A DNA stretch of 64,000 nt from a virus. Taxonomy: Duplodnaviria > Caudoviricetes. The notes under the pieces were generated by a model that worked only from the letters and a program-made list of their open reading frames with translations, had not been told where the DNA came from and ran no database searches. Both the position numbers and the translations under genes were made by a program. The stretch's first letter is position 1; every line of letters begins with the position of its first letter. This document shows positions 14,182 through 26,707 of this stretch, piece by piece. The DNA lies in the IMG/VR virus record IMGVR_UViG_3300016667_000797, positions 14,374 through 78,373 of that record, one strand, 5' to 3'.

Positions 14182-14656
14182 ACTGTATGACTGGGCGGCC
14201 GAACAACGCGACTGGGCTAATGCGGAGGCCGAGCGCCTGGGTGCTCCGGAATCCCCGTTTGTACCTCCGCTAGGTCGTCGACCTGCCTCCGATCAGCTGG
14301 AGCGGTTTCTAAACCTGGCCGTGCCGGACATGTACGCCTCATGGCAAGCGCTTCGGTTTATTCGCGAGCGGCATGATGAGGTTGTGCGCAACTACGAACT
14401 GCAAGAAGAGTGGGATTCCAATCCTGCCATCTATCACCGCATCAACCTGGTCAAGGGTGCGTTGGTAATCCTGGACAATGCGTTTCTTGCCTACGAGCAG
14501 CGCGAAGCTCGCACGGCCACCGCCATTGACCAGAAAAAGAAAGAGATCATGGAACTGCTCAAGACCGTTTTCAAAGACGGCAAGATCAAGTTCTTGGACA
14601 CCGAAGAGGTTGAAAAGCTCGGCTTAGACAACCTGTTTGACGAAGATGATGAGTGA
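14111..14656 (+). CDS. Hypothetical protein
   Basis: AAGGAG RBS before ATG 14111. Confidence 0.65.
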   Translation: MDISSPPYPKNNTSPQLLYRYLTELYDWAAEQRDWANAEAERLGAPESPFVPPLGRRPASDQLERFLNLAVPDMYASWQALRFIRERHDEVVRNYELQEEWDSNPAIYHRINLVKGALVILDNAFLAYEQREARTATAIDQKKKEIMELLKTVFKDGKIKFLDTEEVEKLGLDNLFDEDDE

Positions 14657-14898
14657 GTTTCACAACTATTTGGCATTTAAGGACTTCTAAAAAATCCAAA
14701 ACGGATTTGTCAGAAGTCCTTATGCCTTAAATAGTTATTTTGTTCATTGCAACTAAATACGACGTAACGACTTATGGCGCTGCAGAAAAGCTAAACGCCA
14801 TAAATCGTTATAAACTTAAAGTTTGTGGCGCTGACTTGTGTCAGAGCTACGTAATCCTACTACACAGCATAGGTTGCGGAAACCCTAAGGAGAATCTC

Positions 14899-15615
14899 AT
14901 GCCCAATCATTGTGAATGTCGGTTGACGATCGGTGGTCGCGAGTCGGCAGTCCGTAAGGTGCTGAGCCGAATCAAGTCGACCAACGAGAAGGATGAAGTC
15001 ACGCATTTTGACTGCAATCAGATCATCCCCATGCCCGAGTCGCTGGAGGGGACAAGTGCCGGTCCGTGCGAGCAGACGCATGAGGCATTGTTTGGTCAGA
15101 TCACAGACGCCACGCATTTTACAGAAGACCACGACTACGTCTCGGACGCGCTGATCGGTGAGTACCGATTTGAAAACATTCGGGCGTTGAATCATTACGT
15201 GACTCGATTCAACATCATCCGCTCTGACATGTCTGACGAAGCTCGGATCAGTCAGGTGCGAGCCTGCGAAGAACAGGCCAAGCGCTACGAGTACAACATA
15301 CAGACGTACGGGTGCCGTACCTGGTACGACTGGGCGATTGAAAACTGGGGTACTAAGTGGGGTGCCTATGATGTTTGCGTACCGGAAATCAAGCCACTGT
15401 CCAAGGCGGGATGTATCCGGGCCAGTATCCGGTTTGATTCGGCCTGGGGTCCGCCGGAGCCGGTGATTCGTCGGATGATCGAGATGTTCCCCAAGTGCCG
15501 GGTTACGCTCCGCTACTGGGAGGGCGGCGCTGGATTTCAGGGCAAAATCTCCGGATACAAGGGCAAAGTGACGGAAGAATATTTGCATGAATATCATGGC
15601 CGTCGAGGGGGTTGA
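14899..15615 (+). CDS. DUF1281/YubB ferredoxin-like family protein
   Basis: MPNHC start; WYDWAIENWGTKW and FDSAWGPP motifs; AAGGAG RBS. Confidence 0.75.
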   Translation: MPNHCECRLTIGGRESAVRKVLSRIKSTNEKDEVTHFDCNQIIPMPESLEGTSAGPCEQTHEALFGQITDATHFTEDHDYVSDALIGEYRFENIRALNHYVTRFNIIRSDMSDEARISQVRACEEQAKRYEYNIQTYGCRTWYDWAIENWGTKWGAYDVCVPEIKPLSKAGCIRASIRFDSAWGPPEPVIRRMIEMFPKCRVTLRYWEGGAGFQGKISGYKGKVTEEYLHEYHGRRGG

Positions 15616-15640
15616 CTGGGTGATTAGACTACATTATAGT
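15612..15640 (+). promoter_or_regulatory. Sigma70-type promoter candidate
   Basis: TTGACT-17 nt-TATAGT in an AT-richer intergenic region upstream of 15729. Confidence 0.6.
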
Positions 15641-15728
15641 TCTACTCATCAGGATCAGTTGCTGGTCATGAGCCGCAGGCGGTCTGCGGCTTTGGCAGCT
15701 AATACACAAGATAAGAAGGAGAAACATT

Positions 15729-16082
15729 GTGGTGAAGTTAGCGCAAAAACCGGTTTTTAAGGCCAAAGACAAGGCCTTGCAGCGATTCGAGAACCTGCTG
15801 GTGTCGATCACTGGTCAGGTTCAAAGCGTTGATCGCCACGCTAAGGGTCATTTGTTCTTTGTCCTGAGCGACGCTCAGGTCACGGTGACAGGTCACGGTC
15901 CTGTGGATGATGTGAACTACATGCACCTCGGTTTGTTTGAATGGCAAACCTGGTTGAATCCGTCCATTGTGAAGGTCGGCGCAAAGCTGACTGCGACGGG
16001 TCTGGTTGAGCATTACCGTCGTCGTTCTAATGGCGAGGCGGGTTATGGAATCAGACGCATCATGGAACTACACCCGGGTTGA
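15729..16082 (+). CDS. Hypothetical protein, possible OB-fold
   Basis: AAGGAG RBS; VSITGQV...GHLFFVLSD...KVGAKLTATGLVEHY is OB-fold-like. Confidence 0.5.
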   Translation: MVKLAQKPVFKAKDKALQRFENLLVSITGQVQSVDRHAKGHLFFVLSDAQVTVTGHGPVDDVNYMHLGLFEWQTWLNPSIVKVGAKLTATGLVEHYRRRSNGEAGYGIRRIMELHPG

Positions 16083-16181
16083 TCCTGGGTTGTTGGGTTG
16101 AAGTCGATAGGTACAGCTCACGCTAAAGAAGATTGTGTTGATCTTTTTGGCGTGAGCACAACGAAGGAAGCGATTAGGAAC

Positions 16182-16790
16182 ATGGCAATTGCTACAGAAA
16201 CCAAGGTTCGGTTGGAAATCAAAGGCATTCGTCCGCTGTTGATGCACTCAGCCCGGGCTTGCGATCCGCTTTCCGAAGAAGCGAAAGCGATGAAGCGGCT
16301 GACATCCATTCGTAAGAAGTCCGAAGAAGATATTCGGGCAATCTGCAAAGCCGACTGGGCTGCTGCTTTCTATTCGGACGAAAAAGGTCGCCCGATTGTT
16401 CCTGGCGATGTCATGCTTGGTGCGCTCATCGCCGGAGCCAAGAAGTTGAAGCTCGGCCCGCAAGCCAAGGCCGGGATCATCGCGGTTGACGACTCGATCG
16501 TACTCAATCACGGACACCCTGCGGGCGAGTCTGCCACCGCGCTGGATTTCTGGAATGATGGTGTCGGTCCTTACGTCGACGCACGTGCTGTCAAGGTTCA
16601 GCAAGCTCGGTTGATCCGTTACCGCCCGCGGTTCAACTTCTGGACAATCAAGCCGGTTGTCTGGCTCTCTGACGAGGTGGACAAGGACATGCTTGAAAAC
16701 ATCGCCGAGACCGCTGGACGTCTTTGCGGCTTGGGTGATTTCCGACCCAGGTTTGGCGGGTTCGTCGTCGAACGTGTCACCGTGCTTTAA
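16182..16790 (+). CDS. RAMP/Cas7-like protein (Vipr-like candidate), 202 aa
   Basis: N-terminal strand VRLEIKGIRPLLMH; C-terminal Gly-rich loop AGRLCGLGDFRPRFGGFVV typical of RAMP folds; array starts 28 nt after the stop. Confidence 0.75.
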   Translation: MAIATETKVRLEIKGIRPLLMHSARACDPLSEEAKAMKRLTSIRKKSEEDIRAICKADWAAAFYSDEKGRPIVPGDVMLGALIAGAKKLKLGPQAKAGIIAVDDSIVLNHGHPAGESATALDFWNDGVGPYVDARAVKVQQARLIRYRPRFNFWTIKPVVWLSDEVDKDMLENIAETAGRLCGLGDFRPRFGGFVVERVTVL

Positions 16791-16814
16791 TCCTGTCAAC
16801 GCCTGACCAAACGT

Positions 16815-17793
16815 CTAGTTTAGGCTTGATATGTTAGGGCGCGGTTGGGTTTGCTACGGCGGGGTATGGTTGGGTATGGTGAGGCTCGGGCCGCAAGGCT
16901 AGTTTTGGCGAGGTACGGTTCGGCTGGGCGAGGCAAGGTCTGGCGAGGTCTGGTAATGCCTGGGCCGCAAGGCTAGTTGGGTGTGGTTGGACGCGGCGAG
17001 GTAGCGCCTGGTGTGGTGGGGCTTGGCAGGGCTCGACGTGGGCCGCAAGGCTAGCGAGGTTTGCTCTGGTTGGGCAGGGTCCGGTCTGTCAGGGTCCGGT
17101 CTGACAGGGGCCGAGAGGCTAGTTCAGGTTAGGCGAGCTAAGGTGAGGTGCGTCAAGGCGATGTCTGGCGGGGTCTGGTTGGGGCCGTAAGGCTAGTAAG
17201 GCCTGCCGTGGTGTGCAAAGGTAAGGCACGGTACGGCGTAGCAAGGTCAGGGCCGGAAGGCTAGTTTGGCAAGGCGTGGTGAGGCCTGTTCTAGGCTGGG
17301 CAGGGCAGGGGCCGCAAGGCTAGCATGGTGTGGTAAGGCACGGACTGGTCTGGTACGGTGAGGACAGGTGAGGACAGGCAAGGTCTGGGCCGTAAGGCTA
17401 GTTACGGTGTGACCTGGTTGGGTGAGGTATGGTAATGCGAGGCGCGGTTAGGCTGGGTCAGGCTTGGGCCGCAAGGCTAGTCCGGTGAGCCATGGTAAGG
17501 TCGGGTTTGGCAAGGTCGGGTATGGTGTGTCAAGGGCCGAAAGGCTAGTTTTGGTATGCCCTGCCAAGGTAAGCCACGGCAAGGTGCGGTTTGGAACGGT
17601 TTGGGCCACAAGGCTAGCAAGGCTGGGTGTGGCGTGGCGTGGCGAGGTATGTCGAGGTCTCGTCAGGCGCGGTCCGGTCTGGTTAGGGCCGCAAGGCTAG
17701 TACGGTTTGCCGTGGCGGGGTACGGTTTGCCATGGCGGGGTTCGGTCTGCCGTGGCGGGGTCAGGTTCGGTGAGGCAAGGGCCGCAAGGCTAG
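16815..17793 (+). repeat. Non-coding array of 13 units: (GGY-NN)8-15 tracts separated by a 15-nt repeat GGGCC-GNRA-GGCTAG (candidate guide-RNA array)
   Basis: Repeats start at 16888, 16962, 17040, 17108, 17182, 17250, 17309, 17387, 17466, 17534, 17603, 17686, 17779; tracts are 3 or 4 + 5n nt (one has 1 extra base); 114 of 147 pentamers begin GGY by hand count. Confidence 0.95.
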
Positions 17794-17823
17794 AGTTCAC
17801 ACAAACCATTTACAGAGGAAAAC

Positions 17824-18354
17824 ATGAGAATTGATCCACAGTTCATACAGTCGCTCAAAAAGGGCGACTGTTTGACGTTTGACGTCGTTTGTAGCTGCGC
17901 GGAGGCATCGGATGCTCTGCCTCGTTTGCTGAGTGATCAGGATAAGCGCATGTTGGCCTTGAAGGTGGCCAAAAAGATCGAACGTCAGCTGCATAAGATC
18001 GGACGTATCTGGACGTTAAGTGTAGGTAACGATTTTAGTGTGCAGGTTCTGACCGATTCTGACGCACTGACTTATCGACGACGGCAAGGCCGCAGCGGAG
18101 TCCGTAAGGTCCGCGGGTGCGCCAAAGGACTGGGCGGTATCGACACAGCTAACCTGTCCACCACAGAAAAAGTTGTGCATGACCGCGAGTTCACGCTGGC
18201 GGCATCTCGCGCGTTGGCATTGCGACGCCACTTGAGAAACAAAGATCCGTTTGAACGGATCAAACCAACCACAACAGAACAACTGGCCGCCTCACCTAAA
18301 CAGGTGCGGCTCGATCCGTTTGACAGATTCAAACAACCATCACAGGAGTCTTGA
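17824..18354 (+). CDS. Basic hypothetical protein immediately downstream of the array
   Basis: GAGGAAA RBS; K/R-rich, 176 aa. Confidence 0.7.
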   Translation: MRIDPQFIQSLKKGDCLTFDVVCSCAEASDALPRLLSDQDKRMLALKVAKKIERQLHKIGRIWTLSVGNDFSVQVLTDSDALTYRRRQGRSGVRKVRGCAKGLGGIDTANLSTTEKVVHDREFTLAASRALALRRHLRNKDPFERIKPTTTEQLAASPKQVRLDPFDRFKQPSQES

Positions 18355-18357
18355 TAG

Positions 18358-19035
18358 ATGAACGCAACGACAACCAAGCTCAAGGTCATCATCACATTGG
18401 ACGATGACGTAGACACGGACAGTCCGTTCAAGATGTCCGACTGGTCGCTACGTACGATACGCATGGGCAAGATTCATGACGTGGCGGATGGCTGGACGCT
18501 CAACGACGAGTTGGCTGCACCAGTCCTGGGCACTAACTGCTGGCAGATCAGCTGCTATCGTCATGGCTGCGAGTCCTGGTTCCTGGCGGGTGATCGTCCA
18601 GGTTCGTGCAAGTGGGACACGCGGCAGCTGGCGGGGTACCTGGTCTACAAGGGCGAAGACCCGCTAGAAAATCCCGAAGAAGCAGCTCGAGAGATGATCA
18701 AGGAATACGATCTCTGGGCCAATGGCGACTGCTACTGGTACCGGATCGAGCAGGAGCACGACACCGGTCGCATGCGTAGGCCACATGCCTGTGAAAGCTG
18801 CCAGTGTCCAATGATTTCGGAAGATCCGGAAATTGAAGAAGAGTCCTATTGCGGCGGCCTGATCGGCTGGGACTACACCAAGGAAACCATTCGGGATGAG
18901 CTGCGGGCTATGACCGAGCGCAAGCAAATCTCGCCCGAGGCTTACGTCCTCGCGCTCAATATTTCGTCCGAGTTGCGGTACCTGACGCAGGAACTACAAG
19001 AAGAGCTTCAGGCGCTAGGGTATTCCATCGTCTGA
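18358..19035 (+). CDS. Hypothetical protein
   Basis: 225-aa ORF starting 3 nt after the previous stop. Confidence 0.7.
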   Translation: MNATTTKLKVIITLDDDVDTDSPFKMSDWSLRTIRMGKIHDVADGWTLNDELAAPVLGTNCWQISCYRHGCESWFLAGDRPGSCKWDTRQLAGYLVYKGEDPLENPEEAAREMIKEYDLWANGDCYWYRIEQEHDTGRMRRPHACESCQCPMISEDPEIEEESYCGGLIGWDYTKETIRDELRAMTERKQISPEAYVLALNISSELRYLTQELQEELQALGYSIV

Positions 19036-19379: not shown

Positions 19380-19769
19380 TTAACCGCTGACGTGATTCAT
19401 CTTGCAGTCCGCAAACTCGTCCTGGTTCACCAGGCTGGTGATCTGGTTCTTCAACGCGACGCGTTGGCGGTTCAGATCGCGCACGACAATGGCACGGCGG
19501 CCGACCTCTTCCAGGCCCAGGCGGTCATCCAGACCCTTGCGGATTGCCCATTCGGCGTCCCAGATCTGGCCGTTGATCTCTCGCAGGTCGACGATCAGGT
19601 TTTGTAGTGGTATGTTGCGTGGGTCGACACCGGACCAGTAGTAGGCAATCTGTTTCCGCAATCCTTGTTTGTCCAGCTCGTCATCGGGCAACCGCTCGTA
19701 TTTGAGCTGGGCAATGGTCAGCCGGTCGCAGAGCTCGCAGATGGGCATGGCGATGGCTTTCACAGACAT
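19380..19769 (-). CDS. DUF6165-like protein
   Basis: CELCDRLTIAQLKYER...LREINGQIWDAEWAIR...DLNRQRVALKNQI resembles the DUF6165 pattern (from memory). Confidence 0.6.
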   Translation of the reverse strand: MSVKAIAMPICELCDRLTIAQLKYERLPDDELDKQGLRKQIAYYWSGVDPRNIPLQNLIVDLREINGQIWDAEWAIRKGLDDRLGLEEVGRRAIVVRDLNRQRVALKNQITSLVNQDEFADCKMNHVSG

Positions 19770-19788
19770 TCTAACCTCGGAGGTATCT

Positions 19789-20958
19789 ATGAAGTTGCTT
19801 GTGGCAAGTGATCTGCACTTGAGTGATCGTATCTGGCGGCACCGGCCCATCGAGGGCGACAGCTATCATAGCTGGAAGCAGATCGTGGACCTCGCGATTC
19901 AGGCCCGTGTCAATGGTGTGATTTTGGCTGGCGACATTCTGGACAAGCAGTCCAATCTTTCCGGACCGGCTCTTATGCTGACGCAAGGATTGGCTCGTTT
20001 GACTGAGGCCGCAATTCCAGTCTACTACAATCAAGGGCAGCATGAGTACCAAGGTAAACCTTGGATGTCTCTGATACCAGAAACGCAATGGATTCACGAA
20101 AAACTCGTACCATTGCCAGAAGGCTGGAAGATGGTCGGGTGCGACTATCAAAACGAAGAGAACTTTCAGGCGTTCTTGAGAAGCGACATGGCCCGCGCAG
20201 CCGACATCCTGGTATGTCACCAGGTCTGGCGAGACTTCATGGGCGACACAGGCAAACCCCAGGCCTCGTTTGATGATGTACCTGAAAACGTCAAGATACT
20301 GATTACTGGCGATTTTCATAAGCATCAATTAGTGACTAATGCTGCTGAGACGTTGGCGGTGTTGTCTCCCGGCAGTACGCATAAGCGGTCGATTGCCGAA
20401 CCGGATCCCCATGCGGTATTCCTGCTTAATCTGCGCAACGTGGCAAATTGTCCGACACCAGCCCTTGGAAGGCCGGTGGAAGGCTATACTGCGCGCACGA
20501 TCTACATACGGACACGGCAGTGTGTCCGAGTAACAGCTAAAGGGATAAGTTATGCGCAGCTGCAGGAGCAAACCGATGCCGCGCTGGCGGACGCCGCGGA
20601 ATTGGCCGAGGCATACCGTTTACCGGACCAACTTCGTATGCCCTTGATGCAGCTGACGCATACCAGGCAGGACGCGGATCTGGTGCGCAAGTGGCAACAG
20701 GCTTACCACGGCAAAGCCCACCTCTTCTTCAAACAAGTTGGTGAGACCGTGGACGAACACGAGGAGAATCGTGAGTTCATGCAGCATATGGACCCGACGG
20801 ACCGGGTTGGTATGCTGGGGTGCGTTGATAACTTTATCAACAGGCAGGAACATCCCGACAGGTATGGGCTCGCCCTATCGTTACTGCACAGCCCGGACTA
20901 CGAGCAAGCGCTCCACCGATGGGTCAAGGAACAGCTCACCCATGACAACCCTGTATGA
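19789..20958 (+). CDS. SbcD/Mre11-like metallophosphoesterase nuclease
   Basis: ASDLH, LAGDILD, NQGQHE, CHQ, TGDFH, PGS motifs; upstream of an SbcC-like ATPase. Confidence 0.85.
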   Translation: MKLLVASDLHLSDRIWRHRPIEGDSYHSWKQIVDLAIQARVNGVILAGDILDKQSNLSGPALMLTQGLARLTEAAIPVYYNQGQHEYQGKPWMSLIPETQWIHEKLVPLPEGWKMVGCDYQNEENFQAFLRSDMARAADILVCHQVWRDFMGDTGKPQASFDDVPENVKILITGDFHKHQLVTNAAETLAVLSPGSTHKRSIAEPDPHAVFLLNLRNVANCPTPALGRPVEGYTARTIYIRTRQCVRVTAKGISYAQLQEQTDAALADAAELAEAYRLPDQLRMPLMQLTHTRQDADLVRKWQQAYHGKAHLFFKQVGETVDEHEENREFMQHMDPTDRVGMLGCVDNFINRQEHPDRYGLALSLLHSPDYEQALHRWVKEQLTHDNPV

Positions 20959-21709
20959 CATCGTTGACCTTGGCACGAAGCACGGTAACGCGATTGACGA
21001 ATTTCGACGGCGAGGCTCACAGCGTGTGTTGCCTGCCGTTGATCCGAAATCGTGGATACCTGCTAAGTGCCTGGGCATCGAACGACCGGAAGCGGCCATG
21101 TATCGCACGGTTGTCGAAAACAAGGGTTATCGGTTTCAGCTAGGCAACCTGGCACAGGATCAGGTGCTGCGGGAATTGCCGCCTGCGCGTGTTTACCTCG
21201 GCTGGCATTTCCTGGAGCACCTGCCGAACAAAGATTTCTCCTACTTGGCAGCACAAGCCGCAATGGATAAGGCTACGGAGCTGGTCTGGTTTCGCTTGCC
21301 CAGCTTCGAGCCGGACGATATCTGCGGTGAAGGATTGCTCAAACGGATGGATCTGCGATTCACCTGGACACACTGGAAGGGGCACACCAGCCGATGGTTG
21401 CTTAAGGACGCAGAACGTGCGGCACGAGATTGGGCCGCAGTCAATCCCAAACGTCCGTTTGAATTCACGATTCGACCGGCGCGTTACATTCGTGAGGTAG
21501 CTGACCTGCGGGTTGTACCAATCGACGCTCCGATTGACACAAACAAATATCATCCAAGTCTCGGACCCAAGCCTCGAGATTACCGATTGGCGCGTCCAAT
21601 CATCTCGGAGTGGGAAGTCACCATGAGGTTCAAATGCAAATCCGAAATGTCCAACTACAAAATATTGGTCCCCACCGAACGCTCAACGTCGATTTCGGAA
21701 GCGGACTGA
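20942..21709 (+). CDS. Methyltransferase-fold hypothetical protein
   Basis: IVDLGTKHG, WHFLEHLP. Confidence 0.45.
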   Translation: MTTLYDIVDLGTKHGNAIDEFRRRGSQRVLPAVDPKSWIPAKCLGIERPEAAMYRTVVENKGYRFQLGNLAQDQVLRELPPARVYLGWHFLEHLPNKDFSYLAAQAAMDKATELVWFRLPSFEPDDICGEGLLKRMDLRFTWTHWKGHTSRWLLKDAERAARDWAAVNPKRPFEFTIRPARYIREVADLRVVPIDAPIDTNKYHPSLGPKPRDYRLARPIISEWEVTMRFKCKSEMSNYKILVPTERSTSISEAD

Positions 21710-23742
21710 TTGGCCTGACCGGCTCCAACGGAGCAGGCAAGTCCACCCTGGTCAACGCCATCTATGCGGCGCTGACCAATGACTTCTCCCGGTTCAATGC
21801 CACCAAGGCGGAGATCATCACCAACGGCTCGGGCACTGAACCGAGCTTCATCCGGCTGACAGGCGAACACCGCGGTCAGGAGTTTACCTTGACGCGCTGG
21901 TTGCGTCCCAGCAAAAACGAGTTTGAGATCGGTGGCCGGAGCTTTACCAAGGCTAACGATGTCAACGACGCGGTTATGGCCGAGCTGAACATCTCCAAGT
22001 CGGTGATTGACAAATATGTCTTTGTCGATCAGTGGCAGATGTTCGGGTTTCTGGATCAGACCGACAGCGAGCGGGCCAAGACCTTCCAGTATCTCTGCGG
22101 CACGGAATCCGCGTCGCAGATCTACAAGGTCTGCAACGACTATGTGACCAAGCAGAAAGGCACCGAGATCGTCGACAACAGCCTTGAGTTGCAGGAGGCA
22201 ATTGACGAGGCCCGGAAGAGCATGACGGACTGGCAGCAAGAGATTGCTCAACTCAAACCGTTCGCACTGGATGATGCAACGGCAAACGAGCTCCGACAAG
22301 TCTTGGCTCGGGCAGCTGCTGCCGAAGAGGCCGAAGCTGAGCTGGGGATCAAGGCAGAACTGCATGATCCCTGCCAGGACAAGTTGACTGCCGCAGTCAC
22401 AGCCTTGCAGGAAGTGCAAATCGAAAAGCGTGAAACGGAAGATTGGCTGGCCGAGAACGCCGACAAGGAGAAACGAGCGCACGATCGGGTACGTCAGTGG
22501 CAAGCCGAGCAGAAAACTCAGGCACAGCGGGCACAATGGGAGAAAACGCTGGCTGAGACTCAGGAATTCTTGGCTCAGTGTGACTGGCCAAAATTGCCGG
22601 AAGCCTACTGTCCGGCAGAACAACGCGAAGCCTTGAAACAAGAACGCGATCGGTACAAAGCCTTGCTGCAGGCAACACAAGGACTACAGCTGGACGATCC
22701 TGTTTGCGCTTACTGCGGACAGGAGATCAGCGAGAAACATCGGGAAAAACTACAAACACAACAAGACGGTAATCTAGATGCTTACAATGCCATCATGCTG
22801 CGGCTGTCCAGGTCCCAGGCCTATGACGAGCGTATGGTGCGGCGTAAGCAACAAATAGACGCGCTTGAATCAAAAATTCGGGAACTGGAAGCGAGACTGG
22901 AGACGCTCCCAGCCATCGGCACGCAAAGTTCCGCTCAGGGTGCCGAGGCATTTTTGCAGCGTGTTGCGTCTAAACGAGAATTGCTGGAACAGCTGCGGGA
23001 AAAGGTGGTGCGTTTGGAGAAATTGCGGACGCGCGCCGAGAGTGAGTTGCAGGTGCTGGAGCAACGGATTACCCACCTGCGCAACCAAATCAGCAAAAAG
23101 CCCACGGACGACGAGTTTGCTGAGGCACACGAACGGCTGACGGCAGATCGCGACGCAGTGCCGCGCATCGCAGAAGCCTCAGGAGCCTATCACGAAGCGG
23201 AACGCACGGCCAAGCGTGCGCAGCTGACACTGGATCAGCTTAAAGCACGGCTGGCCGGTCGAGTCAAAATCCGGAATTTGCTGGACACGATTTCTGCCGT
23301 AGGTGATGTGTTTCACTGGAACAATTTGCCTAAAATGGTGTCTCAGGCCAATCTTGAACTCTTGGTGGGCGACATCAATGCCAATCTCGAGTTGTTCAAC
23401 AATCCGTTCACGGTGGAAGCTGACGAGGACTTGACGTTCCGTGTCTACTTCCCAGGGCAACGGCCAGTCAAAGCCAAGCAGTTGTCCGGTGGGCAGAAGG
23501 TCATTTTGGCAATTGCGTTCCGGGCTGCGCTGGGGCGCGTGTTTGGTCACGATGTCGGTATGCTCTTTCTGGATGAGCCGACCAGCGGCCTGGACGCAGA
23601 TAACGTCTCCTACTTTCACGAGGCGTTGCAGCAATTGTCACAGAAGCTCGGCGCAAATCGTCAGTTGGTGGTGATTACGCACGTGCATGAGTTGAGCGAA
23701 GTTTTTGACCAACTCGTTGAGATTAAGAAGAACGGGACATGA
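21634..23742 (+). CDS. SbcC/Rad50-like SMC ATPase
   Basis: Walker A GSNGAGKST, coiled coil with CAYC zinc hook, LSGGQ signature, FLDEPT Walker B, VITH. Confidence 0.92.
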   Translation: MQIRNVQLQNIGPHRTLNVDFGSGLIGLTGSNGAGKSTLVNAIYAALTNDFSRFNATKAEIITNGSGTEPSFIRLTGEHRGQEFTLTRWLRPSKNEFEIGGRSFTKANDVNDAVMAELNISKSVIDKYVFVDQWQMFGFLDQTDSERAKTFQYLCGTESASQIYKVCNDYVTKQKGTEIVDNSLELQEAIDEARKSMTDWQQEIAQLKPFALDDATANELRQVLARAAAAEEAEAELGIKAELHDPCQDKLTAAVTALQEVQIEKRETEDWLAENADKEKRAHDRVRQWQAEQKTQAQRAQWEKTLAETQEFLAQCDWPKLPEAYCPAEQREALKQERDRYKALLQATQGLQLDDPVCAYCGQEISEKHREKLQTQQDGNLDAYNAIMLRLSRSQAYDERMVRRKQQIDALESKIRELEARLETLPAIGTQSSAQGAEAFLQRVASKRELLEQLREKVVRLEKLRTRAESELQVLEQRITHLRNQISKKPTDDEFAEAHERLTADRDAVPRIAEASGAYHEAERTAKRAQLTLDQLKARLAGRVKIRNLLDTISAVGDVFHWNNLPKMVSQANLELLVGDINANLELFNNPFTVEADEDLTFRVYFPGQRPVKAKQLSGGQKVILAIAFRAALGRVFGHDVGMLFLDEPTSGLDADNVSYFHEALQQLSQKLGANRQLVVITHVHELSEVFDQLVEIKKNGT

Positions 23743-24584
23743 TGCAGCGCGATCAGATTTGTCTCCATACGGGCTCCGACGGCATTGTGTGGGCCATGAC
23801 GTCCGCCGGGTTGCCCAAACCAATTGGTGACACAATCACCAAAGGTCCATTCTGGCCGGGACTCTATCGCATAGCAGCTGCCCCCTGCAATTACCGGTTG
23901 CTTGTTGAGCTCTACTCGTCGCTTACCAGCAAAGACATTCAGGCCACGCTTCTGGCGGGCAAGCCTACGCTCGCCAGAGGTTCGGTTCAGGATGTGTTGA
24001 ATCGGCTGACGCTGTTGGAGGTGCACGACAACCTGCCGCACACATGGCATGCCATGACGCGGGAAACCTATAACCATTACCTGCTGTTACGCCAAGCGCA
24101 TGAGCAGGGTTACGGCGCTCACCTGGAATACTTGTTCAATCATCATCAAATGCGCGAGCATTTGAAGTTTCTAGGTATCCAGTCGGTAGCCTTGGCTGTG
24201 GAGCTGTTGGCAGCTATCGGCGATCCGCGCTGGTTCATCAATCCGAACCGGCCGCATCGCCTGGATTGCCTTTACAGCTACTTCCGCCTGATGCCCAAGC
24301 AGTTCTCGGTTGTTCTGTTGCGGGAGCCGTACTTGTCGCCGTCCTGTCGGCGCGCAAAGTTGCTGCTGGAGATCCTGGGAGACTTACGGAAAGACAGCTT
24401 TCTGTTTCACGATTCCGGTCGTGCCACGGCCATGCAACACACCATGAAAGCCTGCCGCAGACTACTGAGCTTTGTGGCGTATAATTGGATTGAGTTGCTG
24501 ACCCACGGCGCCGCCAGCTTTGACGTTGACCGGTTCTTTCAGGACAGGGACAATCGTCGACACTACCGATCGGCTTTCAGGTGA
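23739..24584 (+). CDS. Hypothetical protein with IS110 C-terminal/Nop-domain-like motif
   Basis: FLGIQSVALAVELLAAIGDPRWF...LYSYFRL resembles IPGIG-x3-AA-x-LLAEIGD-x2-RF...L-x-SYAGL; no DEDD RuvC motif seen. Confidence 0.4.
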   Translation: MMQRDQICLHTGSDGIVWAMTSAGLPKPIGDTITKGPFWPGLYRIAAAPCNYRLLVELYSSLTSKDIQATLLAGKPTLARGSVQDVLNRLTLLEVHDNLPHTWHAMTRETYNHYLLLRQAHEQGYGAHLEYLFNHHQMREHLKFLGIQSVALAVELLAAIGDPRWFINPNRPHRLDCLYSYFRLMPKQFSVVLLREPYLSPSCRRAKLLLEILGDLRKDSFLFHDSGRATAMQHTMKACRRLLSFVAYNWIELLTHGAASFDVDRFFQDRDNRRHYRSAFR

Positions 24585-24590
24585 CAATCC

Positions 24591-25085
24591 ATGCGGGAAC
24601 TCAGCGTTCGGATCCGTTTTACAAACCCAAGTCTGGGAAATGAAAAAGACCCCAAGACCGGGCGTTTCAAGTTCCAGCGCAGCCCGGGTCGAGAAGGAAA
24701 AATTCTTTTCCTGGCCACCTGGCACCACAGCAACATGAAACTGGCGGCCGAGATGATGGGCCGACACCAGGAATCGGTAAAGCAGATCTGCTGGGACATC
24801 GAGGTTGATGCCCAGCTGCGCGAAAAGTGTCTGATCCGTTGCTTCTATCAGAAGTCACCGGGCGGGCGCGAGCGCTGGAGCCTGCACGAATCACTCATGG
24901 CCGGGCAAACCATCGTGGTCAACTGCGTGGTGCCTGCCGACATCGACGATCAGGATTTCTGGACGTTGATGCAGATTGCCGGGAAGTACAAAGGATTGTC
25001 GCCCTGGCAGCCAGGCAAGTACGGCCAATATGAGGTGGTCAGCATCCATCCTCGCCGGTCTCGATTTGAGTCCGACCTGGGTTAA
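24591..25085 (+). CDS. Second compact RAMP-like protein
   Basis: LSVRIRFTNPSLG first strand, HESLMAGQTIVV, C-terminal AGKYKGLSPWQPGKYGQYEV Gly-rich loop. Confidence 0.55.
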   Translation: MRELSVRIRFTNPSLGNEKDPKTGRFKFQRSPGREGKILFLATWHHSNMKLAAEMMGRHQESVKQICWDIEVDAQLREKCLIRCFYQKSPGGRERWSLHESLMAGQTIVVNCVVPADIDDQDFWTLMQIAGKYKGLSPWQPGKYGQYEVVSIHPRRSRFESDLG

Positions 25086-25210: not shown

Positions 25211-26707
25211 ATGAATGCCAAACGCATTGTGACCATGTACAAACATGGCAATACCATGTTCCTGGATCCGACGACGGATCGGATCTTCGCCATCCTGAAG
25301 CCAATTCTTAGCTTTCAGGAGCAGGTGCAATATCGTGGAATTGAGGCGACACAGCGTAAGCAGCTGGGTCTTTCTGTTCAGGAGCGCGTGCACCATACGC
25401 TCTTTGAACTGGATCACCGCCATCGGATCGTGACCACGTTCGGGTTTTGGAAGGTCGTGCGAGACGCGCTGCGCAAAGCCGGGTACGAAGTTCGGCTCAA
25501 AGACATGACGCCGTCAGACCCGGCCAAGTTTGAACCGCACTGGCACAACATCGCGCACTACAAGCTGCGGGAAAACCAACCAGAGTTTTTACAGAAGATC
25601 CTGACCAACCGGTGTGGTCGGTTCGATTGTCCACCCGGTTTTGGCAAGTCGTTCATGATTGGCTTGGTGGCAGCGCTGTTGCCCAAGGCCAAGATCGACG
25701 TCGTAACCCGCCGCGTGGCCGTGCTCCGCGACCGAATCTATCCGGAGCTGGTCCAGATGGTCGGTGATGTCGGTATCGTAGGCGGCGGCAAGAAGGTGCT
25801 CAATAAGCGGGTCATGTGTTATACCGTCGGTTCGATGGCACACAGCCCGGCCACAGCAGACATTCTGATTGCCGACGAAGTGCACGAGCTGGCTGCTGAT
25901 AACGCGGCGGCTCAGCTGGTGCGTTGGCAAAAGAGCCGCAACTACGGATTGTCAGCCAGCCACGACATGCGTTGGGATGGCAAGGATGCCCGGATGCATG
26001 GAGTTTTTGGTCCGATCATCTTTCGGGTCGATTATCAACAGGCGCAGGCGGCCAACATGGTGGTGCCGATCGAGGTGCACTGGTCTGACGTGGTCATGGA
26101 CGTTGACCCGGCCAGTGGGCGGGAAGACGTAGAGAAGAAACGATACGGTATCTGGCGTAACAAGTACCGCAATTCGGTGATCGCCCGGGATGCTCGCAAG
26201 TATGACGCCGACACGCAGGTGTTGATCACTGTCGATACGCTCGAGCACGCCATGCATTTGAAGAAACTCTTGCCTGAGTTCACCCTGGTCTACATGGAAA
26301 ATGGACTGACTTCCAGTGATCGGACCAAATATGCCAAAATGGGTTGTTGTGAGCCGGATGAACCGTTCATGGATTTCAACCGGCGACAGCAACTGACTCG
26401 CGATTTCGAATCAGGAAAACTGAAGAAGGCGATCTGTACTACGGTATGGAACGTCGGCGTCAGCTTCAATAAACTGTCAGTGCTGATCCGGGCAGCCGGA
26501 GGCGGCAGTTCAATCAATGACATCCAGATCCCGGGACGCGTTTCGCGGGTGGCGGAAGGTAAAGATTGTGGTGTCGTGCACGACTATCTGGATCAGTTCA
26601 ATCCCGGGTTTCGCAGGCAGGCGACCGCCAGGTCGCAGACCTACGACGACAACGGTTGGCGTCAACTGCGTCCGGGCAAAACGGAAATGGGAAAACGGTT
26701 GACCTGA
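25211..26707 (+). CDS. Superfamily 2 DExH helicase (UvsW-like)
   Basis: CPPGFGKS, ADEVH, GLSAS, TTVWNVGVS, QIPGRVSR motifs. Confidence 0.88.
   Translation: MNAKRIVTMYKHGNTMFLDPTTDRIFAILKPILSFQEQVQYRGIEATQRKQLGLSVQERVHHTLFELDHRHRIVTTFGFWKVVRDALRKAGYEVRLKDMTPSDPAKFEPHWHNIAHYKLRENQPEFLQKILTNRCGRFDCPPGFGKSFMIGLVAALLPKAKIDVVTRRVAVLRDRIYPELVQMVGDVGIVGGGKKVLNKRVMCYTVGSMAHSPATADILIADEVHELAADNAAAQLVRWQKSRNYGLSASHDMRWDGKDARMHGVFGPIIFRVDYQQAQAANMVVPIEVHWSDVVMDVDPASGREDVEKKRYGIWRNKYRNSVIARDARKYDADTQVLITVDTLEHAMHLKKLLPEFTLVYMENGLTSSDRTKYAKMGCCEPDEPFMDFNRRQQLTRDFESGKLKKAICTTVWNVGVSFNKLSVLIRAAGGGSSINDIQIPGRVSRVAEGKDCGVVHDYLDQFNPGFRRQATARSQTYDDNGWRQLRPGKTEMGKRLT

Follow-up and report, generated by a model that had tools for sequence, protein, structure and literature searches.

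VIPR (Viral Interference Programmable Repeat) systems entered the literature in 2026, described from NCBI records; their guide RNAs, the vrRNAs, were reported to consist of 9-16 GGY-NN (YNNGG) repeats followed by an invariant structured tail (bioRxiv 10.64898/2026.04.26.720920, 10.64898/2026.04.26.720927). According to the same two papers, one base of the target DNA is skipped per repeat, and VIPR systems naturally target satellites, prophages and other VIPR loci. Cryo-electron microscopy of the SUSP1 system placed one Vipr protomer on each pentamer, the protein holding GGY and leaving NN exposed for pairing (bioRxiv 10.64898/2026.04.26.720927). The characterised systems, those of SUSP1 and Pseudomonas fulva, are experimental models with at most four guides and long pseudoknot tails. 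The VIPR papers further report degenerate pentamers in working vrRNAs and, for types III-V, vap genes that code for nucleases or helicases, and the VIPR paper mentions other array layouts such as 'staggered' arrays.

We analysed a 64,000-nt stretch of viral DNA (referred to as the window in the rest of the text, with all coordinates given in its numbering) that corresponds to positions 14,374 to 78,373 of IMG/VR virus record IMGVR_UViG_3300016667_000797. The window very probably carries a VIPR locus, which comprises the following elements.

16182..16790, + strand: vipr, ATG start, coding for the 202-aa Vipr protein (ancestral RAMP, Cas7-like); phmmer, PHROG and AlphaFold2/Foldseek
16791..16817, + strand: leader before the array, ending in CTAG as the tails do; conserved in contigs of four sequencing runs
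16818..17793, + strand: vrRNA array, 13 head-to-tail units, 976 nt; tail motif and pentamer parse
17824..18354, + strand: vap-like partner gene, 176 aa; homology to partner genes beside other Vipr genes

The system is a new instance of the published VIPR family and not a new kind of system. It combines Vipr homology, a RAMP fold, GGY-reading residues, GGY-NN vrRNAs, a structured 3′ tail and a viral location without adaptation genes, and it has neither the repeat-spacer array nor the cas1/cas2 genes nor the multi-subunit effector of class 1 CRISPR-Cas. Like the type II VIPR system of SUSP1 (Vipr, Vap1 and four vrRNAs; PDB 36pp; bioRxiv 10.64898/2026.04.26.720920, 10.64898/2026.04.26.720927, 10.64898/2026.10.15.759431), it is phage-borne, lies beside replication genes without cas1/cas2, and pairs a homologous Vipr of ~200 aa, in which GGY-binding and DNA-clamping residues are conserved, with GGY-NN vrRNAs bearing an invariant 3′ extension and with a small non-enzymatic partner gene. 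It differs from SUSP1 in its tail (a 15-nt GNRA hairpin instead of a ~40-nt pseudoknot) and in its guides (a single array of 13 separated by linkers of 3-4 nt, where SUSP1 has one guide upstream and three downstream). The gene order differs as well: vap1 begins a few bases past the vipr stop codon in SUSP1 and the corresponding genes overlap at most other loci examined, whereas the array intervenes between the two genes in the window, unlike at the 12 other Vipr loci examined.

The nearest Vipr clade, found in metagenomic contigs and a metagenome-assembled genome (MAG; L005/L006, L013/L014 and L015-L017), has Vipr proteins 46-57% identical to that of the window, partner genes of the same family, and GGY-NN vrRNAs on the same strand. 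Unlike the window, its loci have hairpin tails of ~35-45 nt, a partner gene overlapping the vipr stop codon, and fewer guides, which lie on both sides of the gene pair. The known VIPR mechanism is unchanged by the locus described here, which extends the known family.

The vipr gene and its product

A sequence-only reading of the window had singled out a 202-aa gene with a glycine-rich C-terminal loop, and the open reading frame at 16182-16790 (+) proved to be just that, the loop bearing the motif GLGDFRPRFGG. The single strong phmmer match of its product in the PDB is 36pp_D, 'SUSP1 Vipr protein' (E = 4.8e-25, residues 10-198); both proteins count 202 residues and align over nearly their full length with 33% identity. 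A Pfam scan of the 202-aa protein returned no match, and its PHROG match, phrog_4652 (E = 2.7e-42), is functionally unannotated. Homologs were detected by tblastn in 131 phage records, mostly Felixounavirus-like coliphages with phiSUSP1 and SUSP2 among them, all of them below 40% identity, and an exhaustive HMMER search with a cut-off of E <= 0.001 yielded 2,245 cluster representatives, of which the nearest is 53% identical. No close relative was found by a single-protein scan of IMG/VR contigs or by megablast against phages.

Modelling of the protein with AlphaFold2 from 101 homologs gave a confident structure (pLDDT 96.7, pTM 0.90) whose top Foldseek matches were Csm3, Cmr4 and type VII Cas7 (probability 1.00, 12-14% identity, E = 4e-6 to 1e-4, TM-score ~0.5), and this Csm3/Cas7-like fold bears out the earlier assignment to the RAMP/Cas7-like proteins. 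With these backbone subunits of class 1 CRISPR-Cas systems the protein shares an RRM core, a G-rich loop and a thumb. Cas7-family subunits polymerise on guide RNA with a fixed period, as Vipr does, the period being 6 nt with one base flipped for Cas7 and 5 nt with three of the five bases sequestered for the published Vipr. Besides the low sequence identity to the backbone subunits (12-14%), the locus differs from class 1 systems in being virus-borne and in other respects: it has no CRISPR repeats or spacers, no Cas1 or Cas2 and no other effector subunits, Vipr being its sole RAMP gene.

In SUSP1 Vipr, G1 is read by H17 and D177, G2 by R138 and W178, and Y3 by R179, C173 and others, while K33, R39 and K82 grip the skipped base and the non-target strand (bioRxiv 10.64898/2026.04.26.720927). 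A three-way alignment showed that these named residues are identical in the window protein (H17 to H22, K33 to K38, R39 to R44, K82 to K87, R138 to R148, C173 to C182, D177 to D186 and R179 to R188), with W178 to F187 as the sole substitution. Given the homology to SUSP1, the conserved GGY contacts and the Csm3/Cas7-type model, the RAMP/Cas7-like assignment was correct, and the protein is more precisely a Vipr.

We compared the locus with 12 other Vipr loci (SUSP1, LESphi2, MakoManhole and Medea1, together with L005-L010 and L013-L017, which represent three metagenomic groups and a MAG). All 12 carry GGY-NN tracts on the vipr strand beside the gene, a positive outcome for the co-occurrence of arrays and homologs that had been proposed as a check. 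The sequence-only reading had also likened the locus to phage VIPR systems made of a Vipr protein and GGY/NN RNAs, a comparison borne out by the published descriptions (bioRxiv 10.64898/2026.04.26.720920, 10.64898/2026.04.26.720927) and by the SUSP1 homology.

Anatomy of the vrRNA array and its tails

Each of the 13 units opens with a linker of 3-4 nt, continues with 8-15 GGY-NN pentamers and closes with the 15-nt tail GGGCC-GNRA-GGCTAG. The earlier outline of a ~980-nt array starting 28 nt past the gene, with 13 units of 8-15 pentamers closed by a 15-nt repeat, thus held (976 nt, 13 tails, array start 28 bases past vipr). The motif GGCC-NNNN-GGCTAG occurs in 13 copies in the entire 78-kb record, on the + strand only and all within 16889-17793. 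The unit bodies measure 45-79 nt and keep a 5-nt register, which had been called strict and is so throughout the bodies but for one 6-nt step in unit 7. The units, all delimited by the unit parse, are listed below with their relations to L004, a 22.7-kb Logan contig that has the same gene order as the window and flanks 88-96.5% identical to it.

16818..16902, + strand: vrRNA unit 1, 14 pentamers, of which 1-4 are degenerate; identical in L004
16903..16976, + strand: vrRNA unit 2, 11 pentamers; identical in L004
16977..17054, + strand: vrRNA unit 3, 12 pentamers
17055..17122, + strand: vrRNA unit 4, 10 pentamers, internal 15-nt duplication
17123..17196, + strand: vrRNA unit 5, 11 pentamers
17197..17264, + strand: vrRNA unit 6, 10 pentamers
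17265..17323, + strand: vrRNA unit 7, 8 repeats, one mid-unit 6-nt step
17324..17401, + strand: vrRNA unit 8, 12 pentamers; recurs as a variant in L004 (unit 6)
17402..17480, + strand: vrRNA unit 9, 12 pentamers
17481..17548, + strand: vrRNA unit 10, 10 pentamers
17549..17617, + strand: vrRNA unit 11, 10 pentamers
17618..17700, + strand: vrRNA unit 12, 13 pentamers; recurs as a variant in L004 (unit 7) and also in runs X4 and X7
17701..17793, + strand: vrRNA unit 13, 15 pentamers, three internal 20-nt repeat copies

A first hand count had given 114 GGY pentamers among 147, and the parse gave 111 of 148; the accompanying statement that nearly all others are one base off stood, since 146 of the 148 lie within one mismatch of GGY. 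Conservation is highest at G1 (141/148, 95%) and at the pyrimidine in position 3 (140/148, 95%) and lower at G2 (124/148, 84%), so that GNY is found in 134 of the 148. The NN pair in positions 4-5, described beforehand as free, is nearly so: all 16 dinucleotides are present, with a certain preference for A/T at position 5 and a shortage of CC, CG, GC and GG, which together make up 17 of the 148. Twenty mononucleotide shuffles of the record contained 0-1 comparable tracts each. The non-GGY pentamers are mostly GNY-NN (23/37), G1 and Y3 being kept and G2 lost, whereas the degenerate repeats of SUSP1 mostly lose G1. This G2-biased degeneracy coincides with the Phe found at the position of the G2-stacking W178 of SUSP1.

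Two other interpretations of the tract were discarded. A translated glycine-rich protein would be at odds with the absence of any long open reading frame across the array, the longest one overlapping it being 92 aa long and extending beyond the 3′ end, and a 5-nt period is not a possible coding period. A CRISPR array was rejected as well, the segments between the 15-nt repeats being themselves pentamer repeats and the record lacking Cas1 and Cas2.

The 15-nt tail folds by itself into a 4-bp stem capped by a GNRA tetraloop, and the stem is intact, with variation confined to the loop, in all but one of the 24 units of the window and L004, the exception being a degenerate tail in one L004 unit. 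With its 15 nt the tail stays in the pentamer register, and it is far shorter than the tails at the 12 other loci, which measure ~35-45 nt. An Rfam scan of 15500-18500 matched zero families, which indicates that no hammerhead ribozymes are present at the locus. The combination of a tail about one third of the published length with 13 closely packed guides would delimit the 3′-end requirements of a Vipr filament, and the array could be used as a naturally occurring template for the compact multiplexing of guides.

A pattern of two successive tails had no match in IMG/VR viral contigs. Among JGI metagenome and GTDB genome contigs it matched 17 times, with background GGY content and no Vipr gene, and most of the matches checked turned out to be tandem tRNA-Cys genes and not further short-tail arrays. 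Most of the checked matches are explained by the coincidence of the tail motif GGCCGNRAGGCTAG with the D-arm region near the 5′ end of tRNA-Cys, seen in L018-L033; the tandem tRNA-Cys pairs carrying it belong to Myxococcota and other MAGs. One further contig (L034) has 19 copies of the motif in a different repeat without tRNAs.

Two units show internal repetition. In unit 13 a block of four pentamers (20 nt) occurs three times, and unit 4 has a 15-nt block in two-plus copies; under a rule of one skipped base per repeat, these guides would read DNA with periods of 12 bp and 9 bp, respectively, for instance iterons or short peptide repeats. The internal repeats may instead be the trace of guide growth through internal duplication. 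Unit 13 alone folds unusually well (z = -3.1).

The partner gene and guide turnover among related phages

The 176-aa product of the gene downstream of the array is 33% identical (E = 5e-19) to the partner protein of L005 (L005_165), whose gene overlaps the stop codon of a vipr gene coding for a protein 48% identical to the Vipr of the window. A profile search with this partner family recovered five more homologs, and the two that could be located on contigs (P0159 and P0161) lie in the corresponding place, behind Vipr genes with 46-48% identity to that of the window. The partner gene thus adjoins vipr across loci whose Vipr proteins are 46-57% identical, and the Vipr identity matrix shows two clusters into which the partner proteins divide likewise. 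The 176-aa protein had no match in Pfam, PHROG or the PDB sequences and no tblastn match in phages. Its relation to Vap1 of SUSP1 is fainter (blastp E = 0.099), with weak links recurring over the same region; the L005 partner scored 14.5 bits against a small Vap1-group hidden Markov model. The predicted structure of the 176-aa protein (pLDDT 70) matched a 146-aa protein of the Vipr-carrying phage adrianh (Foldseek E = 5e-4), which may or may not be the product, likewise of 146 aa, of the gene in the vap position of that phage. From these comparisons, we take the 176-aa gene as a conserved, vap-like partner of Vipr that is predicted to belong to the system, and give it no vap1-6 type.

The locus is carried by an uncultured freshwater tailed phage. 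A survey of sequencing runs found the DNA of the record (78,373 nt, CheckV completeness ~37%) complete in one freshwater metagenome; freshwater, wetland and soil runs from several studies contained ~30-43% of the words sampled from the 2.7-kb stretch of the locus.

Comparison with related phages showed that guides turn over rapidly. L004 codes for a Vipr protein 100% identical to that of the window, and its array has 11 units of which only units 1-2 are exactly as in the window; two further units are variants of window units 8 and 12 that differ mainly at Y3 and NN, and the rest are unrelated. The guide repertoire therefore changes faster than Vipr gains a single amino-acid change. Up to position 16825, contigs of four runs are collinear with the window, and beyond it they diverge; they keep both flanks, a ~35-nt leader and the end of the last unit, and skip, reorder or replace the units inside the array. 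Since several of the joints in these contigs fall exactly at unit ends (17323, 17401, 17617 and 17793) and the flanks are kept while the units change, the units act as exchangeable cassettes. Such near-identical phages from freshwater, wetland and soil studies constitute a natural dataset on the evolution of a guide repertoire without an adaptation module.

Working model, alternative roles and neighbouring genes

Several observations weigh against the assignment of this locus to VIPR. One quarter of the pentamers (25%) deviate from GGY, mainly at G2, and the residue that stacks on G2 in SUSP1, W178, is a Phe here. The 15-nt tail is unable to form the pseudoknot that caps SUSP1 filaments, and filament assembly or capping may therefore differ. 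Comparison of the 176-aa protein with Vap1 gave an hhalign probability of only 1.4-3%, so that homology of the two is not demonstrable, and no solved structure matched its model significantly. Within the locus, the leader included, neither a sigma-70-like promoter nor a terminator was predicted on the + strand, and no RNA dataset was present among the sequencing runs containing it.

For this locus, the whole course from transcription and processing to binding, along with the skip rule and the targets, is inferred by homology, on the model of the SUSP1 and Pseudomonas fulva systems; it supports the interpretation given in the sequence-only reading. The array would be transcribed from the + strand, probably along with the flanking genes, and the transcript cut into units of ~59-93 nt. 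Vipr would polymerise on each unit with one protomer per pentamer, holding G1, G2 and Y3 and displaying N4 and N5, and the 15-nt GNRA hairpin would serve as the 3′ cap, a part played in SUSP1 by the pseudoknot tail of ~40 nt. The resulting filament is expected to bind double-stranded DNA by reading NN-x-NN-x (the 1-nt skip rule) and thereby to block transcription, so that the 13 different guides would silence genes of competing phages, satellites or host prophages. Our confidence in this inter-element silencing role is lower than in the VIPR identity because no target was found.

The published criterion for a target is a match at 80% or more of the NN positions. Scans for exact 1-nt-skip patterns, in which degenerate pentamers were masked, are stricter than this criterion and their negative outcome is accordingly weak evidence: nothing was found in IMG/VR for units 2, 8, 9, 12 and 13 or for the last ten repeats of unit 13, in JGI metagenome contigs for unit 12, or in GTDB genomes for unit 13. 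Mismatch-tolerant comparison of the 13 guides with the 78-kb record, at skips of 0-3, gave nothing above permuted-guide controls, and no site in the record reaches 80% NN match; this absence of self-targets agrees with the published controls. When the guides of the window and L004 were run, also with mismatches allowed, against each other's phage and against 213 kb of fetched loci, matches stayed at chance level, and only the shortest guides (7-8 repeats) reached ~80%, by chance.

We give little credence to the possibility that the guides regulate the phage's own genes or those of its host, in developmental timing or host takeover, rather than competing mobile elements. The identity of units 1-2 in both phages would fit such a role, and the host genome was not available to searching. 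Within the record (~37% complete), however, no site exceeds chance NN matches under any skip rule, fast guide turnover fits an arms race better than fixed self-regulation, and the natural targets published so far are satellites, prophages and other VIPR loci.

The genes around the locus bear on a second alternative. Those discussed below are the following.

14740-15615, + strand: DUF1281_C/Api92-like protein, 5′ of the OB-fold gene
15729-16082, + strand: OB-fold protein, 117 aa, directly 5′ of vipr; tRNA_anti_2, E = 4e-5, under the Pfam cut-off
19669-20958, + strand: SbcD/Mre11-like (Metallophos) phosphoesterase
21610-23742, + strand: SbcC/Rad50-like (SMC) ATPase
24591-25085, + strand: array-less 164-aa protein, possible second RAMP-like protein, by hhalign to the Vipr profile; its upstream gene spans 23739-24584
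25211-26707, + strand: helicase gene

The statement that the locus has no cas1/cas2 extends to the whole 78-kb record, in which no Cas1 or Cas2 family match was found; that of no adjacent nuclease gene has to be qualified by the SbcD/Mre11-like gene 1.9 kb downstream, the SbcD/Mre11-like and SbcC/Rad50-like genes together lying 1.9-4 kb downstream of the locus. It is very unlikely that the filament recruits these SbcD-like, SbcC-like and helicase products to destroy its targets, as proposed for types III-V. The three genes do lie within 2-9 kb on the same strand, AAA and Metallophos genes follow vipr-vap in L007 and L008, and nuclease or helicase vap genes are published for types III-V. On the other hand, the gene conserved directly beside Vipr throughout the clade codes for a small protein, of 176 aa in the window, without a nuclease family match; L005 and L013-L017 keep vipr and its partner without SbcCD-like or helicase genes; and the systems closest to the Vipr of the window are phage-borne ones whose partners are small and non-enzymatic. 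Phages moreover commonly carry SbcCD-like pairs and helicases as replication and recombination genes, and the SbcD-like and SbcC-like genes of the window look like phage recombination genes.

That the array is a fossil or selfish tract, a recombining minisatellite without working guides beside a repurposed Vipr gene, is extremely improbable, for although 25% of its pentamers are degenerate, one unit has a register slip and the tail is far shorter than at every other locus examined, G1 and Y3 are kept at 95% over 148 pentamers with NN free, the tail stem is kept in all but one of 24 units from two phages, Vipr is 100% conserved between phages with differing arrays, the unit boundaries are modular and cassette-like, and degenerate pentamers are reported in working vrRNAs and visible in SUSP1.

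Three traits may mark this system as a variant, namely a tail that is no more than a minimal hairpin, the location of the 13-guide array between the vipr and partner genes, and the G2 degeneracy together with the W-to-F substitution. We put forward only tentatively, and with more doubt than confidence, that it represents a new VIPR array subtype, in which the minimal 15-nt GNRA tail would replace the pseudoknot cap and allow dense multiplexed arrays, the tails doubling as recombination sites for the cassettes. The tail keeps the 5-nt register and hence possibly derives from three degenerate pentamers. If this were the case, recombination at tails would shuffle, delete and exchange guides between co-circulating phages, amounting to guide acquisition without Cas1-Cas2. 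We claim no new subtype, since the alternative layouts mentioned in the VIPR paper ('staggered' arrays) could cover the short-tail type.

The OB-fold and DUF1281_C/Api92-like genes keep their order in L004 and are probably outside the system, because the neighbourhood is not conserved at more distant Vipr loci. No tRNA genes were found for the phage. The 164-aa protein had no PHROG, PDB or phage tblastn match. In an hhalign comparison it aligned over 40 columns with the part of the Vipr profile that holds the C-terminal G-loop (probability 90.6%, E = 1.3e-6); the GGY-reading Asp and Arg of SUSP1 are missing from it. The protein is possibly a divergent paralog of RAMP type, and a gene of equal length (164 aa) lies at the corresponding position in L004. 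Between the OB-fold gene and vipr, which are 99 nt apart, the letters alone predict a long hairpin (16118-16166, + strand) with an outer stem of 8 bp (GCTCACGC / GCGTGAGC), an inner stem of 5 bp and no T-run after it, which could be a processing or regulatory element.

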